64,000 nucleotides of DNA from Candidatus Omnitrophota bacterium (GTDB lineage: Bacteria; Omnitrophota; Omnitrophia; Omnitrophales; JACROU01). The notes under the pieces are model-generated. The model ran no database searches, was not told the origin of the DNA, and saw only the letters and a list, made by a program, of their open reading frames with translations. Where the stretch lies: positions 4,765 to 68,764 of the forward strand of contig JAJDCD010000004.1 in the NCBI GenBank assembly GCA_029261035.1. The letters run 5' to 3'. Position numbers and translations under genes: made by a program. The stretch's first letter is position 1. Every line of letters begins with the position of its first letter. This document shows positions 3,495 through 59,100 of this stretch, piece by piece.

Positions 3495-3643
3495 ACTTTT
3501 TACTTATGACAAATTGGCCGGTTATTATACTAAATTAAAGGTATTCGGCAAGTATTTTTTAACTAGGGTTTTGATATCACGAGCTTAGATTTGATTTATA
3601 CCTAATTAGCCTATAGAACACTCTTTGGTAGGGAGTCGAAAGT

Positions 3644-4100: not shown

Positions 4101-5198
4101 CTAACTTCTCACAACCTTAAAAATCAAAAAAGACCCAATAGAGCCCAAAACTATATTGGGCAACCATAAAGCTATCGCAGGAGGTACTACGCCTCCAATA
4201 GCAAGCGTATCTGTCCAAACGAAAAAGACGTAATAGATACAAATCAACCCCAAGGCAATGCTAAAACTAATTATAGGCTCACCTCTTCGAGTTATAATCG
4301 CCAGAGGGAGGCCTAAAAGAATAAAAATAATGGGTGCCATGGATATAGAAATCTTTTTGTAAAGCTCTGACTCTATCTTAAGCCTTCCCTTTTCTTCTTT
4401 AACGTTAGGTAGCTTCAACATCAATTCATCCAAACTCATATCTTTTTCCTTTTTATTCACCTTCCCATTTTGAGGTTGGTTATTGCCGGTAAAAAGAGGG
4501 GGTAACTCAAATGTTTCAAAATCTAATTTATAAAAAACATTGGGATCATCTGGGTTTCCTTCATCAATTGTTCCATCGTAAAGCTTTAAGCTCAACATTC
4601 TTTCTTCCGGTGAAGAAAGAATCTCTCCTCTGTCTGCAAGTATCGTTCTAATTGGCTTATCCCCTTCAGATTGATAAATGGTAATTCCCTTTAGATTCTC
4701 ACCATCAATTTCCTGAATTAAAATCACATAACCTTTAAATTCTTTAATAAATCTCCCCGCTTCCAAATAAGCAAGTGGTTTGTTTAAAAACATATTTTTT
4801 ACTTGCTCTCTATATTCATGCCTTGTTTTTGAAATGAGATGATCATTAATAAACAAAGACACAAAACTAAGCAGAACCCCAACAAGAAGGGTCGGTATCA
4901 TAACTCGAAAAATATTAATCCCACAGGCCTTCATCGCAATAACTTCGTTGGATTGCGCAAAACCACCATACACAAGCAGAACAGCCGTTAAGGCGCTCAT
5001 AGGCAAAGTAAAGCTAAGTAGTTTAGGCATTAACAGTAACAATAGTTTTGCAACATCAAAAATATTAACACCCTTATTTAATAAAAGGTCCGCTAACCTC
5101 ACCAAATTCCCCACCAAAAACATAAAGGTAAACACCCCTAAGGAAATCAAAAAAGGCAATATAAGCTGCTGCAATGTATATTTTCTTAAAATTTTCAT
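4101..5198 (-). CDS. LptF/LptG-family LPS export permease (YjgP/YjgQ)
   Basis: ~365 aa polytopic membrane protein; N-terminus MKILRKYTLQQLILPFLISLGVFTF and overall pattern typical of the LptF/LptG family; start chosen at the MKILRKY Met (ORF opens at 5261). Confidence 0.65.
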   Translation of the reverse strand: MKILRKYTLQQLILPFLISLGVFTFMFLVGNLVRLADLLLNKGVNIFDVAKLLLLLMPKLLSFTLPMSALTAVLLVYGGFAQSNEVIAMKACGINIFRVMIPTLLVGVLLSFVSLFINDHLISKTRHEYREQVKNMFLNKPLAYLEAGRFIKEFKGYVILIQEIDGENLKGITIYQSEGDKPIRTILADRGEILSSPEERMLSLKLYDGTIDEGNPDDPNVFYKLDFETFELPPLFTGNNQPQNGKVNKKEKDMSLDELMLKLPNVKEEKGRLKIESELYKKISISMAPIIFILLGLPLAIITRRGEPIISFSIALGLICIYYVFFVWTDTLAIGGVVPPAIALWLPNIVLGSIGSFLIFKVVRS

Positions 5199-19477: not shown

Positions 19478-21210
<1,733 letters not shown>

Positions 21211-21666: not shown

Positions 21667-23343
<1,677 letters not shown>

Positions 23344-23641: not shown

Positions 23642-26600
23642 CTACGCTGCTTGAGCCGTTCTGATATACCCTTGGAATTCGGTCCAGAGAGATTGCATCA
23701 ATTGGACGAATTGATCATTGAAGGTAAATACATTGTTCGCTGCACCCCTTTTAAGGGCAATTTTGATATCTGCTGCCAACTTGTCATAACCTCCTGCTAC
23801 AGCTAGTTTTGCAGCAACAGAACCAGCAAATAACTGATAGGTTGTCCACTGAGAATCTGACAATCGACTTCGGTCTACCGAAATTAACTGAGTTCCATTC
23901 AGAAATGCCGCATCTTCCAAATTACTTTTCTCAGCTAATACCACAAGATGTTTTCCGATATTTTGAGAAGAAACTTCAAGGTCAATGGATGATTTTAATG
24001 CATCCACCAATCGAGATAACTTCAAAGACTTTCCAGAAACATCTTTAAACTCACTGTTTTGTGTAATTAGTTTAATCGTACTCTTAACAGAATCATCAAC
24101 AACATGAACCAAAACAAGTCTTTGTCCAAGAGCCTGCTTATCTTTATCGGAAAACTTTAACTGATTAAGAGCATCACCAAAAGCCTCGACATTAGCTTCA
24201 GGAGAATCTAAAACCACGACTGCAATATTACCCTCATTCGAAAGCAAACTTGTTACAACTTCTTGAGGAGATGTCACCGAAGCCTGTCTTACGGTTACAC
24301 CCAACTGAGGTTGTGAGGTTCCAAAAAGAGAAGCAAAAAGACTGTCTTTATTATCCCCCAGATAACCTTCCAAACCTCTAAGCGCTTTTATAACTTCATT
24401 CTCTAAACCAAAAATCTGTTTATACATATACTCAAATTGCTTATCACTCAACTCAGGTCGTATCAGTTTACCAGCTGCATGCGTTGTTGCTTCAACAACC
24501 CCCTCCAATGTTAACCCATATGGATATTCAACAACAGCACCCAGTTTATTATTTAAAATACTAAGAATACTTTCTTCAACCCCCAAACTCTCTGCGGAAA
24601 TAACAGACTCATCTTTTTCATCAACTGGCTTAGTTCCTTCTAATAAATACCAAGGTGTTCTCGCAACTTTTTCAATAAATTCAATCAGTTCACTACGACT
24701 CATTGTTTTAGGTAAATTAAAAGAAATTAACTTATCCCCCATAACAACAGATGGTTCAAAATTTTCCCCCATTAATGGTTTAAAAGCTCCTCTGCTTAAT
24801 GTATCCACAATTCTTAACCCCAGTTTATTTGAAGTTGGAGCTATAAGAAATACAGAGCTTACGATGTCTTTCCCCTTACCATCAGAGGAATAACCAACAA
24901 AAAAATGAAGCCCTTGTTCTTTAGCAGCACCATTAACATCAGATCCAAACAATTTAAAAAAATCAGGAAATAAACCGTCCTCATAATAAGACAGCCCATA
25001 AGAATACAAATCAGTATCAAATAGATTCACTTTCTCAACGGAAACAACGCCCAAACTAGACGCTTCAACAAACTTCGTCTTAGCCAATTCTTCTGCTGGG
25101 ATTACAAAAGGAATTCCTTTTTTAGCAGCAGCTGTAGCTGCGATACGAATTGGACGTTCGGTTTGATACTGAATATCTTCATCAGAAATTATGCGGCCAT
25201 TTACGTTCTCTACTTCTTGTGTCATCATTTCACTCGTTACCTCAGCAACATCTTGAATAGAAAGAAAGGATATTCTTCGCTCTGTCTGTAAAATTTCGCT
25301 TAATTCCATTAAATTCGATATCGATTGAATATCCAGCCCAAGCTTAACATCGCTCAGACCAGCTTCATCCAGTAATTCAATAACTTTATCAATGTCTGAA
25401 TAGATTCGAACTAATTTTAATGCTATAGAAAATTCGACGTCTGAAAACTCCTCAGACAATTGTTTAATAATGCTAAGTTGAATTTTAAAAAATTCAAGAT
25501 CTCTATTTAAACTTTTAACAATACCCTTAACACCAAAATCAGGATTCGCTTCAAAAGGCTCATAACGCAAACCACCAATCAAACCTCTCATCCCGCCTGT
25601 TTTAAGTGTGTTTCCTTCCTCATCTTCTCCCACTTCTGTGCTGGTAGGCGCATCATCTGTCCCAATAACCAAAGATAAATTTCTTGATCTAGCATCGGTA
25701 AAAGCCTTATGTAGTGCTGATCTCATTACATTTTTATAATGCAGCATCCCTTCTTCAAGGCTAAGCCCTAACGAAGTTAAAACTCCACCTGCACTTGCAG
25801 TAAGAACAAGCTTTTCAACGTCATCCATCGCATCGTCACGTTTAACAACTAGAGCTTGTTTTTTTACTGTCATCTCAGCTAAAGTCCTTTTCTCTTCATT
25901 AATCTGCTCTTCTATTTGATCAACAGACTCACTGCGAGATACTGCTTCTTTTCTTTTTATTAATGTTGATAACTCTTCTCTTAATACGTTAATCCTTCTA
26001 TCAAGTGAATCAATTTCAATGACTAATGTATCTAATTCCTCATCTAAGGTCTCTCTAGATTTCTCTACATTCAACTTATCTTGAGATAAATCTCTAAGTA
26101 ACCATGGATGCACTTTCATATCATTTAAAAGAATATCTCCTATGTCCATTCTTAGAGAAGCATCAACTGTAGGTTGAGCCTCTGAGTCAATATTAAAAGT
26201 AAAACCAGCCGCATCTTCAAATAACGCATACTTTTCTTGTGTTGAAGCACCACCTAAATCACTTATATTCTCAGCCGCTAAATTCTTAGCCACTTTTTCA
26301 AATGCCTCAATCACTACCGAAACTGAAGAATAACCTAATGCCGCCAAACCTTTTCCATATTCTTCCTGCCCTGGAACAGAAGGATCATTACCACAGTAGC
26401 CACACTTCACTATACTTGAAAGAATCAAATATGCTTTATCTCGATCACCTTCTTTTAAAGCTGCCTTCGCCTCTTTAATTGCACTTTCATTAAAAATCTT
26501 TGCTTGCCCCGTCACCATCGCATTCCAACGAATAACTGCAGGACCATAAGCGGTTGCATTATTTTTTAACGAAGGATCTCCTGTGTTACGATCAATTCGG

Positions 26601-29600
26601 TAAATCGTTTGCAATGCATCATTACCACCCGTTGAAGTAAAAAAGCGAATCGGAATTCCTGCATCTCTAAAAGACTGCACTACTGCTAAAAAGTCATTAA
26701 TATTAATAGCGTTAGTTGGGATCTCGGTCATCATTCCAATCTGAACCAAATTCGCTAATTCCACATTGGATATCCCTAAATTTTCACCTACCTTAAGAAA
26801 ACGTTCGATCATTTGTTTTAAATCTGAAGGACGACGCACAATAGGAGCAAAGATACCGATTTTGTGCCTCTTGAGCATCGCAACACGAATCATTGCTTCA
26901 AGTTGCCATTCCATCGTTGGCGAATCTAAAAGAAGCTCTAAACCACGATACCCTTTCATCGCATTCAGTTCTTCTTTTACAAATAATTCGGATCCCTTAA
27001 CAGCTTTGTATTCATCCGATTTTCTATCATCCAATCGAATTTTTAAATGCTTGTCTAAAAGACCTATAATTTCTTCAATTAATACCCTGACATTTGGATC
27101 ATCTTGTGCTTCTTTTAAAATTTTCAACGATGTTAATAGAGGATCCGAGCTGTGCCCTAACCCTACTTCATACATCTGTTCTACAATGTCTTTAACTGCC
27201 AATCTTAACTGTTTATCTTGAATCTGCTGATAGCGATAAGCGACCTCAACAAAATCAGGATTTAAAGGTTCAGCAGTAGCCAGAATACCCTGGGTAATAA
27301 TCGATTGATAAAAATGTTGCCCCGAGTTATATCCGGCAATCTGTTCTTCAATAAACTGAATTAGTTTTACATTTTCTTTGCGGTTTAAAATATATTTAGA
27401 AGCCACACCTTCCTCTAGCTCTCCCTTTTCTTGGGCCACCATATTGTCATAAGCAAGTAATGCATCCGTATAAATACCAATATTTGCTAAATCAATCTCA
27501 AGTCGTTTCAACCCAACACCTTCATAACTAGGAATATTACGGGTCGCATAACTAGCCAAAGATTTTTCAGGAGAAGCCACAATAGATGCCGACCGAGTTG
27601 AACCATAAGGCGTATTTGGAATATCTCGAACAGAAAAGTCATTCCCTGCAATCTTAACTTTATGATCATAACCCAACAAAATCTTACCGCGCTCAGCATC
27701 AACGGTGATTTGCATACCCTCTTTCAACACAGTCATCAACTGATCCGAAGTTCCTGTAACCGCCACTAAACCATACTCAGAAGCAACAATCATCGTATGA
27801 GAATTTTGCCCTCCAAGGATCGCAATAACACCTTTAGCCTCTAGCATCGCACGATTCATATCGGGATCGGACTGAAAAGTCGCTAAAATTTTACCCTTAG
27901 CTTTAGCTAGCTCTGCAGGGTCTGTTTTATCCAACACCCAAGCAACTTCACCTTGAGCCGTTCCACCCGTTTTCGCAATAAAAGTAAAATCAAGAACATT
28001 ACCTTCTAATTCAGCTTTTTTAAAAGCCTGATCTGTGACAACCACTCTTTTTAATTTAATTACATCCGGGTCTTGTAAACTAATAACTGTTTCGGGACGC
28101 GCTTGAGTACTAACCACATTCCAATCATATCGATCAAACCCCCGCTCGTCTTTTAAAATTTCTCCGTCTTCTCCAACTAATTTAATTGAAGTTCCTTTAG
28201 ATTCTTCTTTGGGTCTAAAAGCCCCTTCTAAGTCAACATAACCTTGTCCATAAAAACGGTCAATTTCACTTAAGAGTTCGGCATACTGTCCTAATAGTCT
28301 TTGATCTGTAACAGAGAACTCTCTTTTTTCTTCTTCTGTCAGAGGAAGCTCTACTTTCCCCATTCGATCTTCTGTTTCTACAATCTTATACCTTCTTTCT
28401 CCTTTTTGTCTGATGATCACAGCCTGTCCGTCAAGAGATAAGATAAACTTACTTCCACTTTCGTCTCCAGACACAATTTTTTCTCCCTGACCTTCATGAA
28501 TATTTGAAGAAATGGATGGGTAACCCGTTTGTTTATCCGCAGTCATAGCAACAAAGGATAGCTTACTTAAAAACATTCTTTGAAACAATGTACTAATTTC
28601 AACAGAATCATCAAAAGTAGGCAATCCTTCTAAGAATCGATAATCAATCGCTCGATTATTAAAAAGAGATGCTTGGTTAAAAACCCACTCGGTAATGAAA
28701 TTATCAACACCGGTCTCATCCATCCTCACAACACCATTCGCATTTACTTTTTGAACCCACTCTGGAGATGTTGCTGTCACAAAAATAGATGTGTCTTGCA
28801 TTCCTGCAAAAGAAGCCTCTTCTGAATCTTCCCCTACAGCAGAAGATCGAATTGCTAGAACGAGCTTGTCTAAAGAAATTTTTAAGCGCTCAGCAAGAAT
28901 CATAAGATTTTTCTTAATTTCTTCTTCTACTTTGGGAGGAACGACAAGGTTACGAGCAGTGTAAAGAAATTTATTTGAATTTCTTTGTGTTAAGTCATGG
29001 CGTTGCTCCGAATACTCTTTTGCTTCTTCTTCCAAACGTTGAATCGTTTTCTGTGACGCTTCAATCTCAGACTGCTTTCTCGCAATTTTTAGATTATTGC
29101 CGACTATCTTAATGCTATTAACCAGAATAACCGACTCTATAAACGCTTGGTTGAACACAAAAGTATTTGTAGCTTCATCATGGTCCACCAATTCGTCTTC
29201 CGTTTCACCCCATTTAATTTGGAATAATTGCTTATCTGTGCGATTTTTAAAAAAGTCTCTAATATTTTCATACAAGGTATTATCATCTCGATAAGCCCTT
29301 AACAAATCAATAGCAAGAGGAACAACGGTTTGAACATCTTCCAAAAATAGTTCAGGACGATGATTAATATAATTTAGTATCTCTATATCTTTCTTCAACT
29401 CCGAAATCCGACTTTTAACAATAGAAACTTCGGTTTCATTACTTTTTATCTTTTCTTTAATCTCGACAACACGTTGATCTAGAGACTTTCCTAGAAAAGC
29501 AAAGTAATCCGTAATCCCATCAATCTTATGTCCCTTAGCAGGATAATAATCTTGAATATCTAAAATGACTTCCGATAGAACCCCAATCACTTCTTGAATC

Positions 29601-32600
29601 ATCTTAGATAAAGGCTGTTTTTTCTTCTTGTCATCTAATTTTCTAAAAGTAACCCTCAACGCCTGAAGCTCTTCTCTTAAAATAATAGCTTCTTCATCCC
29701 CATTTTCAACCTTATCCAAAAATTGTTCTACAGAAAGACGTGTAAATTTCTTATATTTTTTCAATAAGTTTTGAAGCTGTGTAATATTTTGAATCAAGCT
29801 ATCAGAAATCACATCTGTCGTATTGTGCTCTAATAATTGCTTAAAACCTTGAGAGCCTGTAGCAAAATTTGCCAAAGTCACTGCTCTAGGGGTATACATC
29901 AATTCCCCTGTATGTGCCGTCTTACCACCAAAATTCACCTCATCTTGACGCTCAACTTCAACGTCCCATACAATAATGCGATCTTTAAATGCAGGATCAG
30001 CAACATATTCTGTTTTAAAACTATAACGCGCTGTCGTTGTCGTCTTATCTTCTATATCTTGAAGGCTTACTTCTGTCGTATCCGCTAATTTTTTCCTCAA
30101 GTCTTCCACATCTTCTTTTGTAATCACTTCTCTACGATCTATTTTATCTTCGTGTTGATTATGAAATGCATCAAGCAACACTTCTAACTCTTCAACATTA
30201 AAATCCCTCGTTGCATAAAACCCGTATTCATTTCGAAGCATTTGGTATAAACGAGGAGCATCTAAAATACGTCCTCGATGCATAAAATCAGAGATAATCA
30301 ATAAAATATCATTTTGATTTAAGAAATACCTATCCGAGACTTCTTTTGTATCATTCAACTTCACATTTTCTTTAATATCAAATATTTCTTTTGTATCTCT
30401 AAGTCGTGTTGAATGTTGACGTGTCAAACTCTGTTGCCCGCCTATTAATAAAATCCCTAAAACTTTTCTTTCCCCAGCACCCAACTCTTCACCTTGCTCA
30501 ATATGCCCAGCAATCATTGCTAACCATGACATAGCTATTTTCTTACGCCCTGTTTCTAACAAAAAGTCTACAAACTGCTGGTTTAATAATAAGGTTTTAG
30601 TTTCAAAATCAAAGTCATAGTACATATCTTCAGTTTTTCCTACAGCAACTGTAACTCCTTCTAAAACATCCCCGTATTTCCTAATATCTTTATATTCTTC
30701 TTTACTACCCCCATAAAGTCTAAAAAAGTTTACAGCTAAAGGTATCAGTTTTTGATGCTTATCAAATGCTACTCGCCCTTCTCGAATATCTTCAAAAGAT
30801 AGAACTTGCATATCTTTCGATGGTTCAGAAATAACCATAGCTGCTTTATATCTAAATTCTTTTGCTATTTCTTCTTCTGTTTTATGTCCATCTCTCAATT
30901 GTTCTGCCCACCAACTTAAATCTCCAGTAGTCATAACTCCCGATTGACCTACAACTCGATAACCCGTTTCTGCAGCCAAAGTTCGTATGGTTAACCTAAA
31001 CTGAAATTCCTTTATTAACTCATCTTCTGTTAATGCTTGAGTAGCCCACCATGCCAAATCACCATCCGATGCATGAGCAGAAAAAGGGTTTTCTGTAATT
31101 AAATCATATTCATCTGCAAGCGCTCGTATGGTTTCAAGATCTGTAACCTTTTCTCCCAAACTGCTAGCCCTACGTTCATAATTCTGCCCATTCCAATATA
31201 ATTTTATTTCTCTTGTTCTTTTATCCGCTTGTTTTGTAAATTCAAATTTCAAAACAACATCTCCAGCTTCTTTTTCTAACGTTAAGATGATAGACTCTAT
31301 ATATATTCCCGTCCCAATAGATGTATTAGTTCCTATCACTCCTCCTCCAGGCGCTGGAAATATGTCTTTTAATTTTCCATGCAACATATTTACTAACAAG
31401 CTTACATCCCCTATAATTACCGGAACTTCCCCTTTTTCTAGACTCGCTAAACCCTCTCTTACTTTATTAATTACTTCTTCCTTTTCTCCCAAACTGGATC
31501 CTACTTGCTTCTTAGCATCTATCGCTTGTTGAGCACGATGTGCAGCATACGCTTTAGCAAACTCAGTAATCTCTTCTTGATTAAAAAGAAATCGATACTG
31601 TTTTCTCTCAATCCATTGATAAATGTTAAATGCTTCATTTGGAATAAAACCATCTTTAGGTCTAAACCATCGTGAAAAACTAAATTTATGATTTTTAATT
31701 CTTCTTTTTTGATCTTCAAGAGAAGCCTTCACATCAAGATATTGAACATTCTTAATGTCAACTTCTACAAAATGATTGTCTCTCAATAATTGAGGAGTCA
31801 TCAGAGTAATATACCCAATTCCATGTCGGACTGGATCATACATATCTAACGCAACCAATTCATTTATAACTTTGCTCGATTTTGCTTCGAGAAATGTTTG
31901 AGCTTGTAATAATCGATCCGCTTGAGGATCCCTAATACGAGCTGAGGTCACAGCTTGAGTCCCATCATAAGCAGCTGCAAGAATACGAACCAATTTTTCT
32001 AAATAAGGGCTGTCTTTCAAACGTTCCACTAAGCTTTCCGGAGCTCCCGGTATAGAAGAAAGACTAATCTCAGCTTTTCGCTTTTCAGCTTGTATTTGAA
32101 TTAACTGATTAATTAAATCTTTTTCATCAAGTCCCCTACTAGCAAGTTCTTCAAAATCAGATTCTTTAAGAGGTTCAGAAAATAAATTTTTATCCGTTAA
32201 ATAAAATCGTTCCGCTAAATACTGTACTGTTTTGGGGTTTTCAATTACCCCAAGGCTTGAAGCTTCCGAAGACGCATCTTCACCTTCCAAAGCGGCTAAA
32301 AGACTTTGCCGTTCACCTGGCTCTTCAGTAAAAATCTCGATATAACCTTTAATTTCAGCCCATTCTGTACTTGTAAATAAAAGTCTATTTGTTTCCAAAG
32401 ATGGTAAAGCATCCATCTCCACCTTTTCACCTATACGAAACAAAGGAACACCTCCAACTGCACCGGAGTAAGCAACAGCTCCATCTACTTCCATTGGTTC
32501 TTTAGGGGATAATAATGCTATTGGGTAGTCCTCTTTAGCAATACCTGCTTCTTCATAAACTGGAAGTTTTTTTATTTCTGATTTAAATTCTTTTTCTTTA

Positions 32601-35600
32601 CCTGAAAGATATTTCAAAATCAAAGCAACTTGATCTGTTAAACCATTATTTGTATCACCAAACTTTTCTACTTTATTTTCTAAATAAATTAAAGCCAATC
32701 TAAGAACAACCTCAAGCAAAATAGGTTTGTTTTTCAACCGTTTATTGAAAGCACTTAATCCTGTTATACCGGTAAGCCCTCCGGTTAATTCTAAAATACC
32801 TAAGCTAGAAGCTTCCGTTTTATATTTTTCAGGATTATCTTTAATATCAAAAGCCAAAGAAAGAACGGTTTGATCCTCTGTTGAAATAAGTACTCGATAA
32901 CCTTGCTGTTGAAATCGATCCAGAGTTCCTTGCGCCCCGCCTTTCCATTCATATTGAGCAGAAGCACGGTTTAAAACATCCGCATAAATGGAAGCACTTC
33001 CATTCTGACTCACATAAACAAGCTGAAGGTCACCTTCTCCATTAGTTTTAGGGTGAATCAAGAATAGGCCACCTTTTCCCAACACAGATTTAAGTGCAGA
33101 AGGGTCAAATAGAGGTAATGATTCTATTTCAGATTTTAAAGCTTCTTTCTTTTCTATAACTACTGTTCTAAGAGCTTCTAAATAACCCTTAATTTTATCT
33201 GAGTCAGCAATGTTATGATTATTTACAGTATAAGGACCACTCATATACGCTAACTGAGTTATAACTTCAGACAAAACAGGCTTTTCAACAAGTCTTCCTT
33301 TTAAATTTTGCAACGTTTGAATCGCTGAACTTCCACGGCGACGAACTAAGTAAGAATCTGTATCATCCGGTATAGACAAATCTAAATATGGGATAAAGAG
33401 TGCCTTTTTTTCTTGCTTTCCAGCTTCTTCAATTTGTTTATTTCTTGAAAATATTTCCCCAAACCCCTCTAACAACAGATTGATATTTGCTCGAGAATCA
33501 TCCAGACGAATAAATAACCCAGCGCCACCTTGATCTTTTCTAAGCTCTGCCAAAGCCTTATAGGAAGCCTCAGCAAATGCATCTCGAACTAAATGCGAAG
33601 GTAATCCATGAAGATAAGACTTTGCAAAACCAATGGCTGGATTTGCTTCTAATGGCTGTTTAGGAACAAAAGAAATAATAATAGGAAAATACTTCTGAGG
33701 CTGAGACAATACTTGTTGATAACTAATATGTTGATCTCCTGTACCCTGCATCACCCATTCCATTCCCATGTTAATTAAAGCATCCCTTAAAGAATAAAAA
33801 CGATCTCCTTCTAAATAAATAAAAGGAATTATTTTCCTTCCGTCTTTCTCTGTAAAAATTTTAGCTTGCGATAACAAAAGAGATAAGGCGGTATCATCAA
33901 AAATTCGCTGAACTCTTCGCTCGTATCCAGGAACACCCCCTAAAAGCTCTCTTATCACTGCTTTTTTAGAAACCTCATCATATCGTCTCTTCACAGCACC
34001 CGGATTCCCTCTCTCTTCTTCTTGCAAAGCTTCTAACTCTGTCTTCAAGATTCCTTTTCCTAATTCCACAAAAGGTTGTCTTAAATATAAATTTTCTTGC
34101 AAAATTCTAGTGATCGGATTATCTAAGTCGCTCACATCTACAAAATTGGGATCCAATCCCTGAGAACGAATATCCCGAGCTATTAATCGAGTTCCTGCGG
34201 TATAAGTCATCCCATAGAACGTCGTAAACCATTCCCCTAATTTTTCAGCCGTATATTGACGTATTAAACGTAATTTTCTTTCTGGAACTAGTGAAGATTG
34301 ATTCACCGCCTGAAGTAATGAGTGATTTTCAAAAGGTTCTGAAGGAATTTGAAACACATTATAATCTGCGCTCGAAACTTCAAAATTACCTAAAGTAACT
34401 ACCAATCTCTTATCATCTTGAAAATAATTCTTCTTCTGGGCACCCCAGTCACTTTGTCTCACTGCAACCAAGTTTGCAAATCCAGCCTGCCAAATACTTT
34501 CATTAAAATTTTGTTCGATTGCTTTCCCAAACCAAAAAGCTTCATCTGGGACAACAAGAGCTATATCTTTATACCCACCATCCAAAACATGATGTGCCAA
34601 ACGATTTCCAATGTGAGTTCCGCCTCTAACCTTTTCAATACCTGCTTTTCTAACTTCCCAATAACGCTTCGAATCCAAATCATAGTAAGAGAGAAATGTC
34701 ATCATATGGAGGTCTGCTGTCCAACGGCCACCTACATTATTAAACATAGCTCCAAAACCAGGTGCATTTTCACCCAACTCCTCTTTCAATCCAGAATTCC
34801 GAATAAATGCCGATAGACGACTTTTTTCAGGGGTATCTACGGTCTCAAAAAACATATTTCCCAGAACTGTTCCTAACACATCTTTGATGTTTTCTTGAGA
34901 GATCTCCAAACCTTTATCTTTTGCTTTCAAAGCTAATAACTCCACAAAACTACTTGTTAAAAACCAATCTTTATTAATTGTAAATAATTTTTTTTGCTCC
35001 ACACCTTCTTTGTTTACATTAATTTCATTAAGTGTATTAAAAACTAAGTTAGAAAAAGAAACACCATCCAACGCTTTCTTCTCAGCCACCTTTTTTAACA
35101 ACACTTTAAAAATAGACTCAAACACCATCATCGTTTCATCCGTAGAACCTGATTTAGAACTAGGAATCAAAGCAACCTCCTCCCAATCCGCACCTAACTG
35201 AGCCAATTGACTTTCGATAGAAACTTCAAAGTTTTTTCCTAATTCGTATTCACCAACAATAATGGATTCTTTTTCAGAAGGATCTTTAAGCTGTCCAAAC
35301 ATCGTGGCTATACCTTCAAACGGCGTATGTTGTCCACCAATGCCTGTTTTTATAATTAAACGAATTTTCTTATCTGGATCAACAGCACTCAGTTTCTTAT
35401 TTCTATTAGCAAAAAATTCTCGCATCATCTTAACTACACCGAGGAAAATTTCTTTTCCACCATTCACATAGTATCCTTCATTCCCCTCGTCACCCATTGC
35501 GTGGGACCCATCATTCACAGCACCTTCTGGCACACCATAGCCCTCTTGTTCATAGCCGCCCTGTGTGAAACGTTTCTTCAGGCCAGAATCTCCTCCTGCG

Positions 35601-44100: not shown

Positions 44101-45807
44101 TACGCCTGAAGAAATAACAGGAAAAACAGAATCCCCTACCGTATTAAAAGTATTATGAACACCCAACGCGATACTTTCTAAATGAAATTGAAGCAATGAT
44201 GTTGGGTCATCTAAATAAGTTCCAGCACTCACTCTTGCACGGTCTACTGTATCCCGAGCCAAAGGTTTTAGAGAGTCAAACTTTTGTTTGGTCATTAATT
44301 CTCTGTACTGATTAGGATTAAACTGAGAAACATTTGGAGAAACAATCACATAAGACCAATCACTAGCTCTAAGTAAAGAGCTAATTCCTTCACTATGAAA
44401 ACCTCCAGCAACCAAAGCCATTTGCTTGATTTGTTTATCAGAAGTATGCTGTTTTAGATTACTAACAAAAGATTCATCACGAGAACGAGCCAATAAATAA
44501 AATTCCATAACATCATTTAGCAAAAGATTCATTTTGAATTCTTGATCTTCATTCAATTGCACCAATCCTTCAAACAATGAAATTAATGTAGTTTCTTTTA
44601 AAACGCGTGAAAGCTCTTCTAAATCTTTTCGAGTTAGCTCTAACTTAAAAGCATTTTCAATCAACTGAATCATTTCAGACTGAACAAAAACCTTCTTTGC
44701 TTTTTCAGCAATAAGTAACTTTTGATAAATATGATTTTCAATAGAATCAAGCTCTTCAAATAACTGTGTCCCCACCAACTCTTCTTTCAAGATCAAAGAA
44801 GAAGAAAACTGAGTTAACTGTGGATAAGACTTCCAATCGATGGAAAGACCTTCTGTAGCAAGGTACAACTTATCAAAATAATGACGTGCTCCTAAAGGAA
44901 ACTGAGATTCACCTAAATTATTGAGAATAAATTCTTTCTCAGGAGAGTCTAGCAACTTTTCTGACAATACAACTTTCAATGCTTCTACTTCTGCTTTTAA
45001 CTTCTTCATATTCACATTCTTACCAGAGTCTTGAAGTTTCAAAATACGCACTAAATGAGGAAAGCGTGCTTGAGCATCAGATTTACTTAGATCCATACTC
45101 AACATTCTTTTAGTCAGCTTAGAAACCGTGTTGATATAAGCAATCGTTTGATCTGAAGTATTAAATGCTGCCTCTTTTTGTTTTTCTAACTCTCTTAACT
45201 TTACATCATAATAGGTTTTTTTTAATTCTTTGATTCTTGCTTTAACAGGCTCTAATAGGGGAAGGTAAAGAGCTGCTTTTTTACTAATATCTCTATAAGC
45301 TTTAATGTTCTTTTGATATAACTTCCTGTCATCCACACCAACAACATTGGTTTGACCCTGAGTCTGATAAGCAAACCATTCTGTTCCAGACAACTCACCT
45401 TTATCTACTAGCTGCTGCAACACTTGTTTATTAATTTCAGGCAAAGGAAGAAAGTTTAAATTAATAGGATCAATCGGTGTATCTGCTGCCTCAACACCCA
45501 CATGATTGATTTTATGTTGATCAAGAAGATGATTTAAAATCGAAGAGATGTTCTTTTGCGCACTTGGATTTGTATGTGCGTCCTGAATAAATACTAGAGT
45601 AGGTTTTGCTTGATCCCCTACATGAACGTCTTCAATCACCCCGAATTTTTCTGGAATCGATATATCTAAAATTTTTGATTGCTGGTTTGCAACTTGCTGT
45701 AGCACATTCACAGATGGATTTGCATAAACGGAATTTGATAATGTAAATACGGCGATGAGCGCCCAAACTATAGACTTGAACTCCACAGATGTTTTACCTA
45801 ATGACAT
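38107..45807 (-). CDS. giant secreted multidomain protein 2 (2566 aa), paralog of giant 1: signal peptide, shared N-domain, embedded complete GAPDH-like domain, shared C-domain
   Basis: 7.7-kb ORF. Signal peptide SIVWALIAVFTLSNSVYA. GAPDH hallmarks: YYGITGGRGRIGKGILRLL (NAD-binding GxGRIGR), ISCASCTTNG (catalytic Cys motif), ITEHGYTLSQ (His, cf. VHAYT), SSIFDPSGTSVTV...WYDNEMGYTHRVIDV (C-terminal GAPDH signature). N-terminal LVFIQDAH...NHVGVEAAD...GGFHSEG and C-terminal LFATSKPQLGVTVRQSS...NNVFTFSDQFMQLM are homologous to giant 1. Confidence 0.8.
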   Translation of the reverse strand: MSLGKTSVEFKSIVWALIAVFTLSNSVYANPSVNVLQQVANQQSKILDISIPEKFGVIEDVHVGDQAKPTLVFIQDAHTNPSAQKNISSILNHLLDQHKINHVGVEAADTPIDPINLNFLPLPEINKQVLQQLVDKGELSGTEWFAYQTQGQTNVVGVDDRKLYQKNIKAYRDISKKAALYLPLLEPVKARIKELKKTYYDVKLRELEKQKEAAFNTSDQTIAYINTVSKLTKRMLSMDLSKSDAQARFPHLVRILKLQDSGKNVNMKKLKAEVEALKVVLSEKLLDSPEKEFILNNLGESQFPLGARHYFDKLYLATEGLSIDWKSYPQLTQFSSSLILKEELVGTQLFEELDSIENHIYQKLLIAEKAKKVFVQSEMIQLIENAFKLELTRKDLEELSRVLKETTLISLFEGLVQLNEDQEFKMNLLLNDVMEFYLLARSRDESFVSNLKQHTSDKQIKQMALVAGGFHSEGISSLLRASDWSYVIVSPNVSQFNPNQYRELMTKQKFDSLKPLARDTVDRARVSAGTYLDDPTSLLQFHLESIALGVHNTFNTVGDSVFPVISSGVNSRLKLNANLAAFDRIELEAARSHSSRVSESVFRVSGNGASRLVSIILETSPVTGEANVLYSGVASANSLGVAVAREQVLDQPIQLAINVGAPDYYQDLSQIQLVTQLSEPQVEEFRSVASNFPKNTNVNPYTLYNRDLISMLWALIGDPNISLNEIFGVANPQSLFNLVVSNTVFGRLPGKLLLIEEEGVFYLSINDKRIKLNPELPHNDNVDGYDTLIDMSDSRNSGESEENLLKRLEDLRSKSSLSSVISYNPLSDLKTKRPIIYGQNSEVLLREDEVHFVPSLGTQVAGNVLALLQRSDLNEDISAYTGLSVKTPAELMDRELQTLRAGMGTALSLEFPEWAGYNKTNDGELVQASLNSMNFAAPFKGASIVDFTIQLKADSELLKLNPEERKKKIIAALQAGLKRTGSENFVRLQKEGEPLESLMLSDHRELAIIGIEDMIVGGEGQVLIPVWSNELGRVQTFMNMLVNDRSNYPIETTSQDNVPSNSIPVVDSSDTKYMPAQLPEGERIYYGITGGRGRIGKGILRLLYKDPNYYPAFLNGVSDVIALVQQMQADIVHKAYPWVAEAVKEGPGKDFLVLKDKQTDEVVYKIPIFNIRLARSGNKEDAAAKFIRDMVTMLRGLKGPNEEAINIEVLFDAVGEDDGFNRPLHHSLAIAGVQRIIKTYPAKKDGIKNIVFGINHVEDIREEIERAHMAKEEYQRIIPTSAYGAIPEEVPLVVETISCASCTTNGVGPGLSRLNGYLLDEGFPSMFDAVFITEHGYTLSQSSLGSASRVPKKGPSLVNDPTMLGAISTTGASKAYVKADPLFKGKFEGASRRLANPDGSAVWTSLRIGINNINDVPTVEQVNAQAYSWANSDALRGIFGYDEIQNTSQLHNRSESSIFDPSGTSVTVSPDKDYVVIQIKEWYDNEMGYTHRVIDVEKYAALLSRGLIEDDTDYGPSVVSAVKLPGQPYLHTYNGDAEAIIKDQVVGKETIIASPNVTYIPLINLLKKQPPAFFTSEQKKYLKRMVDEFLVPVLQRARDLKQGFPSLYHKGRSFKSLQVTGIKDVMSFTSTEGHQYFMLPQYIADEGFLNINIPFSFVEKVVTTDDHHAYYQLILMGIFQEVMGLSYPEALVAAKHYNKEATQGVSDLPDMTRAMLDLMREQAKSDDEARDYLNGAMKDNVGFVFGETVRNSLVKRRAAPEYMNTIRNELTVMAHLINGYIAGPVVNGKGIPATPQELVSVLNADNLVSQNEIPTEVLSKASLSRDLVAAASMVPVVQRFRGVSLQKPLDDHLLTGLLDSTTTDQIKGLLGSRDLSVLPIATGGSVKDQSKLDPGHMIGSGKDDIARIIVNPLDKKRALLRSGEVDEPGAISSFIVFDEPEDSVNAPRAFPMLYGNAFFGSFKKGVSSEMKQRILEQLAENPIDPDADPIETIKFWAGVNGVVYNPTSNQPGQLSNVTVHVLDSVGDRQHETARINALEEFKQESGIEIDKIQHGTLEPALEAVWGNSDDRIHIFLSTSGIAEILTAMTLAGRESSYGSFRVMSRAGLENAQSIEPQFAYNFSRQESSKIGSFQRELAGEILPKRSKSPSTPKKIFDTIHNFNGNFEATLVPVTANPALNLPGIREINNREFVVPLVRIVRTSQTELHRWVEYFNVKVDSREGYSWTPIAAPQSEAGVEANSLGGAKINRVQQILLGEQSILDALASGDVSNLPGDYFLTPEQMIAAGNAFASSVYAEDSADALLAELNRVSENDVDSTDVLIRYLKDNPAGLLSSLFATSKPQLGVTVRQSSITSASEVVTGALANEGSLTVLVLDQLNQDLSRFTSEVAALDLPEEEKQSISDRIVFVEPREFSVEGIQDAIESILTSKFTDILGRKVTLTKLVNNLSQTLNVSAPSKGLNQHLVVLAEKELLPDADRLKGKQLISVERKALSDVQWDSYKLFAGALAGKLAVVGGFDKLPTDVRGALKKVRGNNVFTFSDQFMQLMSGLWNEFQGYQRIRESA

Positions 45808-52884: not shown

Positions 52885-53199
52885 TTATTTAGATTTTCTG
52901 AAATATGTAACTACGTCAAGGATGAATCCAAGAAAAAAACCGCTAATGCTATAAATCAAAATTGTAACTATACAGCTAACCCAAAAAAACATGCGTGGGG
53001 AAAGAAACTCATAAAAGCCCATCAACTTTGACAATTCAAACCCCAAAGACCAATGCACATATGTAAATGGAAAAGCAAAAATTAGATACGGTGCTGCAGA
53101 ATGAGGACTATAGACAGAAATCAATTGATGTATAATGAAAAAAAACAAAACAAACAGTGTAAAAACAATAGTCGATAAAAATGAAAGTTTGAACTTCAC
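52885..53199 (-). CDS. small polytopic membrane protein directly downstream of giant 3 (candidate immunity/accessory protein)
   Basis: 104 aa, ~3 TM helices; GTG start overlaps the giant-3 stop codon (translational coupling geometry); hydrophobic aromatic-rich composition. Confidence 0.4.
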   Translation of the reverse strand: MKFKLSFLSTIVFTLFVLFFFIIHQLISVYSPHSAAPYLIFAFPFTYVHWSLGFELSKLMGFYEFLSPRMFFWVSCIVTILIYSISGFFLGFILDVVTYFRKSK

Positions 53200-56100
53200 T
53201 AAGCATCCCCTCCAGCAAAACGAACCTCAATCTGATGACCAATAATGTTATTAACTGAATTATTAGGATAGTCATCAATATGGAAAAATAAAGCGTTATC
53301 AAGTATGTTATGAAAATGAGGGCCTGTCCCAATTCTTACTTGGCTAACTTGACTACTAAATTCTTTTAAACCATTCATTAAATATCCTGTTTCTTGTACA
53401 TCAAGAGCAATGCCCTCAATTGATCTCATCACAATATCCTGTCCATTTAAATCAGTAAATGGTCGATGGTCCCCTCCTAACATAAGGCTATTCCTGTCAC
53501 GACTATTTGTAATGCCTTCTTTATGTATCATATGCTCTAAAAGTCCACTTGTGTTTCCTGAATACAAATAAAATTTGCTATTCGGATATTTTTCTAGCAC
53601 TCTGACAAACTCTTCACGATTTCTAGGGGTATTAATTATACTCCAATTGTCTTCACCAACAGTATCTCTAATTTGATTTTGCATTTCTACATTACTAACA
53701 TCTAAGTACTGTTCTACAGTATAAATTTCTGGGTGCATTTCTGGAGAAGAAACATCAAAATTTTCTAATTCCAAAACATTAAACATTACTTCTTCTGGTG
53801 TCCAAAAATCATGTTTTTTTCTGCCAACAATGGAATCATAAGCACTTTCATCTAATTGATTATAAATTACTGGTAGCATTTGATTAAAAACAGGCTCTAC
53901 TACTCCAATTACACCAGGTGAATTTAAAATTTGCGTCGATACTCCATGATTCAAAGCATTGAGTATAGTTGTAATGTTTTCTACTGTAGTCCCTGACCAG
54001 TTTCCTGACTCAATTTCTAATCCAATAGTTTTATCTAATAAATAAATCTTCCCATCTTTTATTTCACTACCCCCGCCAACCCCAACAACGCCTGAGTTTA
54101 AAGGTTCTATGGTGAGAAAATTATATCCTTGGTCACCTTGAACTTGAATCTGAGACAGTTCATTATTTTGGTAACTATAGTTTAGAGTTGTTCCCTCTGA
54201 AATTTGTTCAGCAAAAGCAACATTGCCTATTGAAAAAAGTCCTGTTGATGTTCTTTTGACGTTTTCATAAATTTCTGTGGAAATTTTACCCTTAATGTTT
54301 TTGGTAATAGTTATGTTATTACTTCCTAACACACTCTCAACATTAATGGTATCTCCCGAATTATTTGAATATATTGTCGTTACAAAACCATTTTGATCCG
54401 TCAAACTTCCTATTTTCTGCCAGCCGGATGCTCCAGTGAAGGAGTTAGCTTCATGCAACACTTCTTGAGTTTCTCGACTAAAAAGCCCTCCGAAAAATTC
54501 TACTGTTTTATCAAACCCCTTTTGAAGGACTTCTACTCCAAAAGAAATAGCATTTTGTGCTCCGTTTATTACTTTTGAAGCTAATGTTTGTGCTGTGTTG
54601 GTTATTCTTTGAAATAAACTACTTCCTAATTGATTTGCATCCGTTTGATCCGCATTTGGAATAGACGCATTATTTACTAGGAGTTGTCCTAGCAATCCTG
54701 AAACAAGTCCACCTACTTCTAAAGGCGCTCCTGCTCTGTTAAGGCCGATGTTGGCTCCTACTGAAACGAGCCCTGCAGCTGTTTGGGTATTAAATAGAGC
54801 ATCTTTAATACTGCTAAATAATCCTGCACTAGGATTTGCAATGCCTTGAATACCTCCGCTGATGGTTACTCGTATCGGTATGGAGAGTAATGATGTCAGT
54901 TCTGAACTAGCACCTAAAGCATCCAATCCTGTGATGGCTATGTCACCAAGAATATTCTTAGCGGTTCCACTTTGTAAGAAATCAAGACTACCGCTGAGAT
55001 CAAACCCACCGAGTCCAAAACCTGAAAACAAACTAGCTCCACTCGAAATTAAACTAATGGCTGTTGGGTTCAGGTCGGTATGTCTAGAAAGAATCCCATT
55101 AACCCCGTTCCCTACTAAAGCTAGACTTGCTCCTGCTGAAAAGGGTGCAGCAACAATACCACCGACGATTTTAATACTGTCAAAGACCGTTCGAAATACT
55201 TTTGTGTTTAATACATTATCATATAGTGTATCGGCAACTTTCTTGGCACCTCTTATAACTTTATGTCCTATTTTACCAAGAAATGGGATTACCTTACCAA
55301 TACCACTGGCTATTTTATCTAATCCATTAAAGAAGTTGTCTTTAAAAATGCCAACAGCTGAGATTAAATCCAAGCTGGCTATAGAGCTTATAAGATTGAC
55401 TGTGCTATTAAATGCCTGCTTAAAACTACCTGTCGAAATTAAACTAAAAGCAAAATTAGCCAATGCTGATATGGCTCCAAATACGAGACCCGCAAGAACA
55501 ATGGCTGTGATTCCGAAAAAAGCGCCTCTTATTTGAGTTTGTTCAATTTCTGTCAGCTCACGAATTTCATTGTTTTGATTTTCTGATGGTGGTGCTCGAG
55601 TGCTTAAAACAACTCCTTCCCAATCCGTTAAAAACTCATCTTTGGTCAATGTGACTATTTCCAAATTATCTTCTGGGCCGTGACCTGGGTTTCTATAAAC
55701 GATACCCTCTTCCGTTACTTGAGTGAGTTCGATGTAATGATTTCCATCAATATGTGCAATAACACTCATTTCACAATCAGGACCTTGTTCTGAACAAGCT
55801 TCTTGATACATAGCTCTCAGAGATTCATAATTAAGATTTAAGGCATGTACACCCTCACCTCTATCCTCTCCCTCTGAAGAGGGAGAGGAAGATAAAACTC
55901 TTTCCGCATAGCGTTTCATGGAGAAAAGGCTGATAACTAAATCACCTTCTTCTAATGGCGTTAGTATTCCTTTTAAGATGTCCATCACGATTAAATCCCT
56001 AGCTAAGGTAACTCGATCTGGAGATTGCCACGCACCATTGTCATTGCTCGCAATGACAGAATCTTCCAATAAAGCTTCTAAAGCAAGAAAGGCAGATTGT

Positions 56101-59100
56101 CCAAAGTGAAGGTCTTGATTATCCAAATATTCTAAAATAGATTCTGCTTCACCTTCTGTTAAAGAAAGGGCTTCCTCTGAAGTTAAATTTAAATCTGAAA
56201 GTATATTCTCTTTATCACCCTCGGTTCCATTCAGATACGTTTCTATCAAAGTTCTAACAGAGTCTTTAATGGAGTTTACTTCTAACGTACGGTCTGCTCT
56301 TTCTGTTGAATTAAGCAGTATCGTTGCTAAGGTGCCAGGCACCTCACTTTTAGTGAGAGAGCCAGGCACTTGAGATATCCAATAATTAATTTCATCTTGA
56401 GAGGGATCTCGACCCAATTGAGTTCTGAATTGATGTAAGATAATGGGTGTTAATTCTTGTAATAAGATCTCGTGTTCGATCTGCTCTTTATCTTGCAAGA
56501 CTTGAAGATTTGCAGTATCTACTTCTAATTGAATGTCATCATAAGCCGTGGCTACATTTTGATCCAAATCACGTAAAGCCTGACTTCTCGTTTCAGCAAG
56601 GTCAAAAATCATTTGTTCGACAGTCGCTACCTGCGAATCGATACTCCCCAGAACATCTGCAATTTGGCTTTTAACCTCTTTGCCTGCTCTTTTTGGAATT
56701 TCTATAGATGAGACCTCGTTTCTTTGACCTAAAAGTCTATCGCGTTCTCTAATTAAACGTTCTAAATTAGCTTCATAACTACCTTCAATCGTCTCATGTA
56801 CGATAAACTCCCTTTCTGCAACGACTGCCAAAGCTTCTGCTCTCTTAATTTCAATATCGGTGTTAATTAAAGAAATTTCTCGTTCCAGAGCTGCCCTTGT
56901 TTGAACCATCGTGATTTTTGCTGGGTTACCTTCACTGTCGTACTCGTACTGTATTTGAGTATTGCCTTCACCATCTACAACTTCTTCCAACAAACCATTA
57001 TCGTCATAAAGAGAAACGGTATTATCTGCTTTCCATTCGGTAATAGGTTCTCCTTCTAAGGTGAACTCCCCTAAAACAGAGGTTTCTGGATCTAGTTGAT
57101 ACTCTAATTGTTTTGATTGAATCAATTGATAGGCATTCACCGCCTCTTGATAATGAAAGTCCAACGCGTCTACGGCACTTTTAGAATTAAAGTCTTTCGT
57201 TAAACCTGTCGTCGATCGGAGTTGTTTTGGAACTCCATTTTCATATTCAATCTCAATTCCATCAGGGTAGACAATCAATGCTTTTTGATTACCCTCTATT
57301 TCCTCCCAAAATATTTGAGAGTCATCCTCTAAAATAAGCTGCGTAAGAACCCCTTCTTCATATGAAGCTTTAGGTGCATTGGGATTAATCGCTTTCTCGA
57401 TCAATTTAACGCGATGAATCTTTTCTTTGGATGTATCTTGAACAATCTCGACTTGATGTTCCTCAAAACCTTCTGCATTCAGGGATACGGTATCAATCAC
57501 TTTGTCGGGATAAACGTACTCATGCTGATATCTCAACCCATTAGGCAATGTATGAAATAAAAGAGCACCTTCTTCACTGTACTCTTCGCGGATGCCATTA
57601 CTTTGAATCACAACTTCTCTATCTTCAACTCGTTCATGCTGAAAAACCTGTTTAACACTTCCTTTATATTGCAACGAAGAAGACGTTAATTTTCCATGTT
57701 CATCATATTGATAAACGGTTTCTATTCCATTGGGTTTTACCGTACTCATCAGCAAGGAATCTAAATACCGTTCTTTTATTCCTGTTTCTGGATCCTCAAT
57801 CACTGTGATTTCCCTGCCTAAAGCATCAAATTCATAACTGTAGTTTAAACTAGGCTTGTTTTCTCTAGAAACCTCTCGAATTCTTCCATAAGCATATTCC
57901 ACTAACGCATCTGGGGTTTCATTAAAGTGGTTAAAATTAGCCCCTTCGCTTAGGTTTCCACTTTCATCATAAGACAGTTCCAAGATAGAACCATCTTGAT
58001 GTCTAATTTGTGTGATATTACCATTGCTAATTTCCGCAACCCTTCCATCTGCCGTTTCCACCTGTGTCGCTTTTCCTTCGTCAGAATATCGAAGCACTGT
58101 TCTTGCTTTTAATATTTCGCTTTCATGTACTAAAGACAGATCCTTTTGAACAATCAATTCATCACGATCATTTACAGATTGAGGAATAAGACTTAAATTA
58201 ACTGATTGTGTTATGGATGGGATTTGGTTCTGAGTAATAAATAGGTCGGTCATCCAATCACTAGCACTTACTTTTCTTTGATTGACCCATGTAATATTAT
58301 CAACCAAGATTTCGTTATTCGAAGAGTTTAGAGAATTAACTGTAACAGTGTCTGAAACCGTAACAGAATCTAATGGAAGGTAGAAATCTTTCCATTCGTT
58401 TCCTACATTATTGAGAGTGAATTCAGCATCGCCAACCGTAACGATAACGGTCTCTAACTCACTCGACATTAGATCTTCTTGTTTTAAACTAACGTGAAGA
58501 TACTCATAATCTTCTCCATTCCCTTCACTACGCGCAATTAAAGAATCCATATGCATTGCTCTAAGCGGTTCAAAACCATTTCCATTATTAAACTGAACTA
58601 ACCATTCTTCATTTCCTGGTTGATAAATAATACGATCGACTAAGCTATCTCCATTAATATCAATCAGTTCATTTTGAATCAGAGGAATACCGTTATTGGT
58701 ACTTAACGTAGAGTGCCAAAGCTCGTTGTCTGCACGGATTCCTATTGTCTCTGATCCGTAATTTTCAACCCCTTGCCACTGAACAGCTTCATTAAAGCCG
58801 CTGCCATTATTCAGCTCGACCCACCAAAAAGTAGGGCTGTTTTCTGAAGATACTGTTTGATCCACAGTAATACGATCGATCAGGCCATCTCCATTGATAT
58901 CCATAGACTCAACCCAAACCTGCCTATTGTTTTCTACATATCGAATGCTTGAAGCAACATCAATCTCAGCAACCCCATCAAGTAAACGAACATCATCATC
59001 CCAGAGAATCGAATCATCAAAGCCTTCTCCATTATTTATCTGCACATACCATTCCATACCTAATGTAGGGTCAGAAACATCGTTCCATTGGTTAAATACA

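Follow-up and report, generated by a model that had tools for sequence, protein, structure and literature searches.

The giant proteins of Omnitrophota have been described to hold domains homologous to glucose-phosphate isomerase, phosphoglucomutase (PGM), triose-phosphate isomerase, fructose-bisphosphatase, aldolase and pyruvate-phosphate dikinase, and that preprint proposes their post-translational cleavage, giving no information on the cleavage points (West-Roberts et al. 2023, bioRxiv 10.1101/2023.11.21.568195). A second preprint describes 'multi-enzyme metabolic clusters' as well as a sugar-metabolism domain community that includes PGM. It reports that only 67 of 176 complete genomes have glucose-6-phosphate (G6P) isomerase, arguing that such gaps are not false negatives (bioRxiv 10.64898/2026.06.07.730766). 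Here we characterize a phosphoglucose isomerase (PGI)-like module that is encoded within g1, a giant open reading frame (ORF) of a Candidatus Omnitrophota bacterium (assembly GCA_029261035.1, contig JAJDCD010000004.1, positions 4,765 to 68,764 of the forward strand, a stretch of 64,000 nucleotides hereafter called the window), together with the protein family to which it belongs. As West-Roberts et al. reported glucose-phosphate isomerase homologues there, the existence of a PGI-like domain in Omnitrophota giant proteins is already known and not new. In the parts of both preprints that we read, neither the PGI-like family nor its catalytic residues, three-unit build or boundary motif are defined, and new as far as we found are the definition of the family with its intact catalytic set, its three-unit build resembling bifunctional transaldolase/PGI (Tal-PGI), its predominance as an embedded module and its possible identity as the 'missing' PGI.

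Canonical PGI (PF00342; EC 5.3.1.9) works with a catalytic histidine, His388, and a catalytic glutamate (PMC8354745). Its short Bacillus/Thermotoga/Thermus/Bdellovibrio type (3ifs, 2pgi, 2q8n, 1zzg, 7nss) provides the best structural matches to the g1 module, in which the GIGG, SKSGxT and GGR[YFW] motifs and those of the Glu and Lys follow one another as in canonical PGIs. The module furthermore has equivalents of the phosphate-binding Ser/Thr residues and of Arg272, Glu357 and Lys518 in rabbit PGI numbering, which we take to be Arg1018, Glu1093 and Lys1241, respectively. It differs from canonical PGI by an identity of only 10–15 %, falling under the threshold of every curated hidden Markov model tested, by being ~290 residues longer than the short type with a helical insertion in its first unit, and by carrying Gln for the Ser of GIGGS, NES for ESNGK and apparently Trp at the place of the catalytic His. 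The His motif instead comes only after that of the Lys and belongs to a further PGI-like unit at the C-terminus.

The same order of Glu (AESTGK), Lys (FDQPDVExAK) and His (GPRFLHSTGQAYKGG) is found in the PGI part of Tal-PGI, annotated as bifunctional transaldolase/PGI (NF007080, e.g. WP_066564764.1 from Sphingobium pTK2), in which a C-terminal extension of ~170 amino acids (aa) after the Lys motif holds the conserved GPRFLHSTGQAYKGG, just as the g1 module carries a His-bearing extension, while the canonical His position is occupied by an invariant DLEP lacking a His. The His segment of Thermotoga PGI is weakly matched by this extension in HMMER, and that of short PGIs likewise in hhalign, at E 0.0056. 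Unlike g1, in which a Pfam scan found no PF00923, Tal-PGI has a transaldolase domain, and it passes the Pfam PGI threshold that the g1 family fails. The sequence relationship between both is marginal, as NF007080 matches one of 37 family members at E 0.0011 and, with an alignment of 16 Tal-PGI sequences as counterpart to the family, hhalign recovers the Glu helix only, pairing EQNFNES with AESTGK in a local match at E 0.0023; no significant similarity emerged when both C-terminal extensions were compared directly. Double-SIS proteins such as the glucokinase regulatory protein GKRP (4lc9) and a GlmS-isomerase-like protein (2a3n) share two SIS-type alpha/beta units and sugar-phosphate binding with the module, but rank below 45 PGI chains among its fold matches, and the module has no Pfam SIS match. 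To our knowledge, neither of the two has the Glu/His/Lys set of PGI.

Results and Discussion

A diverged PGI superfamily module in g1

The module (Table 1) is a complete, highly diverged and apparently intact member of the PGI superfamily. An original prediction made from the DNA sequence had proposed a PGI-like SIS domain at 34250–35420, based on three motifs in PGI order, all of which we found in one minus-strand frame, that of g1 (LIIKTGIGGQHTP, LIPSSKSGSTDETMM and GAMFNNVGGRWTADL). The triple is not due to chance, since its generalized form with PGI-like spacing, G[IVLM]GG...SK[ST][GF][ST]T...GGR[YFW][ST], is expected ~1e-9 times in a protein of g1 composition and occurred in 0 of 2000 shuffles. 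All three motifs are moreover invariant or nearly so across 36 homologues. The proposed interval is real and part of the unit, but the true module is larger, and both the Lys motif VELGK and the His motif DQH fall past its low-coordinate end. An isomerase catalytic region, described as not evident, does lie inside the interval, where Glu1093 in EQNFNES becomes visible once homologues are aligned. The distance to the PEP-synthase-like (PpsA-like) module of g1 had been underestimated at ~1000 aa, as the first motif lies ~2,100 and the last ~1,900 aa N-terminal of it.

The relation to PGI is carried by a fold comparison, divergent relatives, hhalign alignments and conserved residues more strongly than by direct sequence matches, which are weak but consistent. 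An AlphaFold model of the module built from 37 sequences (pLDDT 90.5, pTM 0.92) retrieved PGIs as the top 45 Foldseek matches in the PDB with E-values from 6e-9 to ~8e-6 and a probability of 1.00, and the first non-PGI SIS structures followed at rank 46 (GKRP) and 48 (GlmS-like protein). The best matches are thus PGIs, and neither of the two outcomes that had been named beforehand as refuting the proposal, best matches to generic SIS proteins or no significant match at all, came about. Profile searches agree, with PGI (PF00342) as the sole Pfam match, at a sub-threshold E of 0.008, and no match of SIS (PF01380) at E ≤ 10.

On the sequence level, hhalign matched the family to 12 PGIs from E. 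coli and plasmid records at E 3.5e-5, pairing GIGG with GIGGS, SKSGSTDET with SKSGTTTE and QPYVELGK with DQPGVEAYK, and to five short Bacillus/Bacteroides-type PGIs at E 5.6e-5, additionally pairing NVGGRW with DVGGRY. A comparison with a single E. coli PGI gave a spurious 21-column match that was discarded, and phmmer of the region against the PDB found nothing beyond noise, with LacI and VapC matched at E > 0.03. A transitive link was found in a library of 1.84 billion proteins, in which the family profile reaches P0149 at E 3.9e-18 and P0175 at E 3.6e-4. P0175 is a plain PGI (Pfam 1.6e-28), while P0149 passes the Pfam PGI threshold and bridges to solved PGIs in phmmer (1zzg at 1.6e-10, 3ifs at 5e-10) with its GGRFS and ESNGK motifs aligned. 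The partial matches of Pfam PGI and of the NCBIfam G6P-isomerase models fall in the first alpha/beta unit.

Table 1. Coordinates of g1, its PGI-like module and neighbouring features in the window.
Feature	Window position	Residues (aa)	Strand	Basis or remark
g1, host ORF	23642..37777	4,711 aa	minus	14.1 kb; ORF list and translation
Hydrophobic segment of g1, N-terminal		14-32	minus	hydropathy scan
ASSLG directly before first residue of module	35666..35680	700-704	minus	candidate inter-module boundary or processing motif
PGI-superfamily module	33458..35665	705-1440 (736 aa)	minus	homologue alignment, model, fold matches, hhalign
SIS1, first SIS-type alpha/beta unit, PGI small domain	34676..35380	800-1034	minus	model secondary structure
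LIIKTGIGGQHTP	35321..35359	807-819	minus	in g1 frame
GIGGQ, PGI GIGGS phosphate-binding loop with Ser->Gln	35330..35344	812-816	minus	hhalign to GIGGS
LIPSSKSGSTDETMM	35126..35170	870-884	minus	in g1 frame
SSKSGSTDET, PGI phosphate loop SKSGTTTE / SKTFTTQET	35132..35161	873-882	minus	aligned to PGI loop
GAMFNNVGGRWTADL	34709..34753	1009-1023	minus	in g1 frame
GGRW, Arg1018, Arg of PGI signature-1 GGR[YF]S	34721..34732	1016-1019	minus	alignment
SIS2a, second alpha/beta unit, PGI large-domain core with Glu and Lys motifs	33986..34648	1044-1264	minus	model secondary structure
EQNFNES, Glu1093, candidate catalytic base, E. coli QQGNMES	34496..34516	1088-1094	minus	alignment
VELGK in LRQPFVELGK (aa 1232-1241), Lys1241, PGI signature-2 Lys (FDQWGVELGK)	34055..34069	1237-1241	minus	
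SIS2b, extra C-terminal alpha/beta unit, PGI-large-domain-like, with His motif	33458..33943	1279-1440	minus	
DQH within EWVMQGTGDQHISYQQV (aa 1341-1357), His1350, candidate equivalent of the catalytic His (rabbit His388)	33728..33736	1348-1350	minus	resembles E. coli IWGEPGTNGQHAFYQL
Tail after module	32813..33457	1441-1655 (215 aa)	minus	not covered by most homologues
ASSLG closing module and tail segment	32798..32812	1656-1660	minus	
Further (A/G)SSLG copies in g1		1839-1843, 2093-2097, 2204-2208, 4239-4243	minus	
PEP-synthase-like (PpsA-like) module of g1		~2912-3834	minus	Pfam PPDK_N, PEP-utilizers, PEP-utilizers_C; NCBIfam PEP synthase 3e-80
Cpn60/GroEL-family paralogue	21667-23337	556 aa	minus	Pfam E ~1e-78 to 1e-80 for the pair
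Cpn60/GroEL-family paralogue	19478-21148	556 aa	minus	Pfam E as above
g2, neighbouring giant ORF	38107-45807	2,566 aa	minus	
Third giant ORF	53199-63977	3,592 aa	minus	RHS repeat E 1.6e-15; weak TcdB-toxin-like and glucodextranase-B-like matches

Catalytic residues and three-unit build

Conservation was assessed in 81 proteins, 41 embedded or fused and 40 free-standing members. Arg1018, Glu1093, Lys1241 and His1350 are conserved in all of them, as are the Ser, Lys, Ser and Thr of the phosphate loop SSKSGSTDET. In the GIGGQ loop Gly is invariant and Gln is present in 78/81 members. The Arg1018 motif occurs as canonical GGRFS in distant relatives and is aligned to solved PGIs by P0149, whose ESNGK likewise aligns with the ESEGK/ESLGK of solved PGIs; every distant relative keeps the ES of the Glu1093 motif, mostly as PESNGK. 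The PROSITE signature-2 pattern of PGI reads [FY]-[DN]-Q-x-G-V-E-x-x-K, and in the corresponding LRQPFVELGK, which hhalign pairs with DQPGVEAYK, Q, E and K are present in 81/81 members and the motif is kept in the distant clade. His and Gln of the DQH motif are equally invariant, and every distant relative whose sequence extends over this stretch has (D/E/A/R)QH. Features invariant in the family itself are GIGGQHTPF, NES for ESNGK, an N-terminal GGYxQxGYGVPEGAAIDGS segment and a family-specific helical insertion in the first unit, SIS1, whose boundaries are our reading of the predicted secondary structure. An ORF of 132 aa with a TTG start on the plus strand (34418-34816) lies opposite this conserved PGI-like coding sequence and is almost certainly spurious.

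The module thus combines a PGI fold with PGIs as closest structures, the phosphate loops, the GGR Arg, the Glu helix and the signature-2 Lys, but lacks the catalytic His between the Glu and Lys motifs. Its motif order is Glu, Lys, His, whereas canonical PGIs have the His between Glu and Lys. Between Glu1093 and Lys1241 a His in the canonical place was absent in a by-eye comparison, and Trp1111 of the second unit SIS2a, present in 81/81 members, stands roughly there, a position that comes from the same comparison by eye and not from a computed alignment.

SIS2a aligns collinearly with PGIs in hhalign through the Lys motif, and the invariant His1350 lies beyond it in a further unit, SIS2b. Modelled alone, the fragment aa 1264–1440 (177 residues, pLDDT 90.3) retrieved only PGIs among its top 10 PDB matches, with E-values from 1e-4 to 7e-3, query-normalized template modelling (TM) scores of 0.5–0.6 and a root-mean-square deviation (rmsd) of ~4–8 Å, whereas the matches below the top 10 were noise. 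Because this C-terminal fragment on its own matches PGIs only, we describe the module as built from three alpha/beta units. In long PGIs, its best hhalign match is the segment from the Glu helix to the His, although weakly at E 0.027, and against the N-terminal part of its own family hhalign gave no significant match. An internal duplication is supported by the predicted fold and the motifs, but not by sequence statistics, because the sequence comparison was not significant; a permutation in place of a duplication may also account for the build.

In canonical PGI dimers, as in the mammalian structures, each active site receives its catalytic His from the other subunit. Because the canonical His originates from a second chain, we infer that the extra unit supplies the His within one chain. 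In the simplest reading, SIS2b would play the role of the partner subunit and the module would represent a single-chain pseudo-dimer. As a His-bearing extra unit is common to the family and Tal-PGI, it makes a compact case for the internalization of an inter-subunit active site.

The family and its fusion partners

With g1 aa 705–1656 as query, the stretch bounded by two ASSLG motifs, 65 homologues were found with E-values down to 1e-231 and ~50 % identity over ~76 % of the query. These are mostly free-standing proteins of ~700 aa named 'hypothetical protein', labelled mostly as metagenome-assembled genomes (MAGs) of Omnitrophota and some as Elusimicrobia, and for this module no Pfam domain is precomputed in family members. 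When 1.84 billion representatives were searched exhaustively with HMMER, 124 proteins came up at E ≤ 1e-3, among them P0079, which is g1 itself; many hold the module at varying positions inside proteins of 1.8–7.9 kaa. In GTDB contigs with one genome per species, we located 58 family loci, mostly with Omnitrophota labels, 53 of them with a full or near-full match; ~13 of these are free-standing, while in ~38 the frame runs well past the module on one or both sides. The module is more common embedded in long multi-enzyme ORFs than free-standing. The g1 copy shows 50–55 % identity equally to free-standing and embedded members and does not appear to be a decaying relic for that reason. Two MAGs contain two family copies each (loci L018/L050 and L019/L025), one with both copies embedded in long ORFs and the other with one embedded and one free-standing.

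Several members are fused to PGM domains, e.g. P0015, P0017, P0041, P0044 and P0143, and P0060 is fused to 6-phosphogluconate dehydrogenase (6PGD) and 6-phosphogluconolactonase (6PGL) domains. The fusion partners PGM, 6PGL and 6PGD all make or use G6P. A fixed module set common to the giant homologues was not found. The neighbourhoods of two free-standing homologues are of ordinary housekeeping character, with a gene for a GH77 4-alpha-glucanotransferase near one of them and no glycolytic operon around either.

A more divergent sister clade, P0143–P0172, likewise occurs in PGM fusions or within large proteins, the longest of 6,218 aa, and carries near-canonical GIGGQ, SKSGTTDET, GGRFS, PESNGK, QPxVExxK and EQHS motifs in the order Glu, Lys, His. 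Since this clade keeps the same motif order, the three-unit PGI build is older than the core family.

Predicted function

From the homology, fold, residue conservation and gene fusions described above, we predict the module to be an active isomerase of G6P and fructose-6-phosphate (F6P), a reading to which we assign a probability of roughly 0.7. By analogy with canonical PGI, the GIGGQ loop would hold the sugar phosphate together with Ser and Thr side chains from SSKSGSTDET, Arg1018 (GGRW) would stabilize the enediolate, and Glu1093 (EQNFNES) would move the proton between C1 and C2. Lys1241 (RQPFVELGK) and His1350 (GTGDQHISYQQ), the latter presumably provided in cis by SIS2b, would open and close the sugar ring. 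Whether within intact g1 or once released by cutting at the ASSLG boundary motifs, the module may be active in either form. Its metabolic context fits, and we count for this function the fusions to G6P enzymes, the PEP-synthase-like module in g1 and a module resembling glyceraldehyde-3-phosphate dehydrogenase (GAPDH) in a neighbouring ORF.

Several findings weigh against this assignment. None of the curated PGI models tested from Pfam and NCBIfam reaches its threshold on the family. On the g1 module, PF00342 attains 15.3 bits where its gathering score demands 22, and an E-value below 1 is obtained for only 2/37 members; NCBIfam G6P-isomerase models match 10/37 members far under their cut-offs, with NF003016 at 21.9 bits against a threshold of 487. 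The family profile has no match among PDB sequences at E ≤ 10. TM-scores to PGIs are low (0.27–0.36 query-normalized, 0.35–0.55 target-normalized) and the rmsd is high, wherefore the module likely has large insertions and a domain arrangement unlike that of canonical PGIs. In the core family, the first phosphate-loop Ser is replaced by Gln and the Lys of ESNGK is lost. Finally, the N-terminal hydrophobic segment of g1 is signal-peptide-like, and sugar phosphates and ATP would be scarce if g1 was exported; an extracellular g1 is hard to reconcile with PGI and PEP synthase chemistry.

The strong divergence, with 10–15 % identity to solved PGIs, could also indicate that a PGI-fold enzyme acts on another sugar phosphate or catalyzes another reaction, for example as a mannose-6-phosphate isomerase, a dual PGI/phosphomannose isomerase, another hexose- or pentose-phosphate isomerase or an epimerase-like enzyme, and the unique invariant features and the extra unit could shift specificity in this direction. 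Yet, the family varies neither in the four catalytic residues of PGI nor in the phosphate loop, all of its fusion partners (PGM, 6PGL and 6PGD) converge on G6P and the nearest architectural relative is annotated as PGI, so that we regard a different substrate as unlikely.

Considerably less probable is a non-catalytic sugar-phosphate-binding or scaffolding module that serves regulation or assembly in the giant protein, comparable to GKRP. GKRP appears among the fold matches at rank 46 and most genomes carry the module within multi-module proteins, but the E-values of PGIs are better than that of GKRP by about three orders of magnitude. Binding alone would furthermore not need an invariant Glu, His, Lys and Arg, which are retained in 81/81 members including the 40 free-standing ones, and conservation does not differ between embedded and free copies (~50 % identity). 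A chance likeness of motifs or a generic SIS/Rossmann-like fold unrelated to PGI, to which the sub-threshold PGI model matches and the lack of a PDB sequence match for the family profile might point, is effectively refuted by the top 45 fold matches, the transitive HMMER link through P0149 and P0175 and the shuffle result, and the absence of a Pfam SIS match at E ≤ 10 also stands against it.

If the predicted G6P/F6P isomerase function holds true, a PGI-superfamily protein that is not called by Pfam and NCBIfam would alter the picture of absent hexose entry steps in Omnitrophota. Taken further, the family might be the main and often the only PGI of Omnitrophota, the reported lack of PGI in ~109 of 176 complete genomes being an annotation artefact; it would then be a single-chain pseudo-dimer with a cis His from a duplicated half-domain, and in most lineages one module of a polyprotein cut at short lineage-specific motifs like ASSLG. 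We put this combined proposal forward only tentatively and consider it rather doubtful as a whole.

Candidate boundary motifs and possible processing

The tetrapeptide SSLG occurs six times in g1 against 0.17 expected, and the copies lie between apparent modules. Two giant homologues, P0070, which has six copies against 0.09 expected, and P0071, carry the same motif 5–6 aa ahead of their PGI-like module, and AAASLG is found in P0075, whereas (A/G)SSLG is missing from most other giant homologues. Free-standing homologues start at the aligned position just after the g1 ASSLG. Judged from sequence, (A/G)SSLG may be a linker specific to the lineage or a site at which a polyprotein is cleaved. Its presence before the module in g1 and some relatives suggests concretely where the cleavage points could lie on which West-Roberts et al. 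had no information.

The tail that follows the module has no Pfam or NCBIfam match. Within g1, aa ~1480–1600 and ~1665–1780 (window ~32440–33340, minus strand) are weakly similar over ~120 aa with 26 % identity, at an E-value of 1e-4 that was obtained in a very small database. Similar ~120-aa units precede the ASSLG at aa 1656 and the copy at aa 1839, and this unit may represent a repeated spacer domain.

Host protein and genomic surroundings

The host g1 is a multi-enzyme protein in which the PGI-like module stands beside other central-carbon enzyme modules, and a protein in a public collection, P0079 from a 222-kb NCBI contig, is identical to it. A hydropathy scan predicted no further membrane span besides the N-terminal segment. 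Upstream of the PGI-like module, g1 aa 40–699 (window 35681–37660, minus strand) has no Pfam domain and no PDB match, and only two distant homologues with 27 % identity were found among 5.8 billion proteins, making it by sequence a nearly orphan region. A ChaN/Tiki-like protease identity suspected by eye for this region was dropped, as nothing was found in its favour.

The neighbouring giant ORF g2 carries a diverged GAPDH-like module at aa ~1091–1500 (TIGR01534 at E 4.8e-27, Pfam Gp_dh_C at 1e-5), and no family match or predicted membrane segment was found in the rest of g2. Like the multi-enzyme giants of Omnitrophota, g1 and g2 are long ORFs that string together diverged modules (PGI-like, PEP-synthase-like and GAPDH-like), although g1 with 4.7 kaa lies below the size classes of 10–147 kaa of the giant-protein papers. 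The third giant ORF has three hydrophobic segments near aa 2815–2955 and is toxin- or adhesin-like in character, unlike g1 and g2. The pair of Cpn60/GroEL paralogues lies directly downstream of g1.

All gene-like ORFs of at least 150 aa in the window are on the minus strand. GC content is ~37 %, and each 2-kb bin shows a negative GC skew (-0.12 to -0.31). The remaining genes are of housekeeping type, encoding DnaE, GuaA, IMPDH, CoaX, a BirA-like ligase, Alr and a TsaB/TsaD-family protein. The 222-kb NCBI contig carries these same proteins, and the window is a chromosomal region and not a mobile element.

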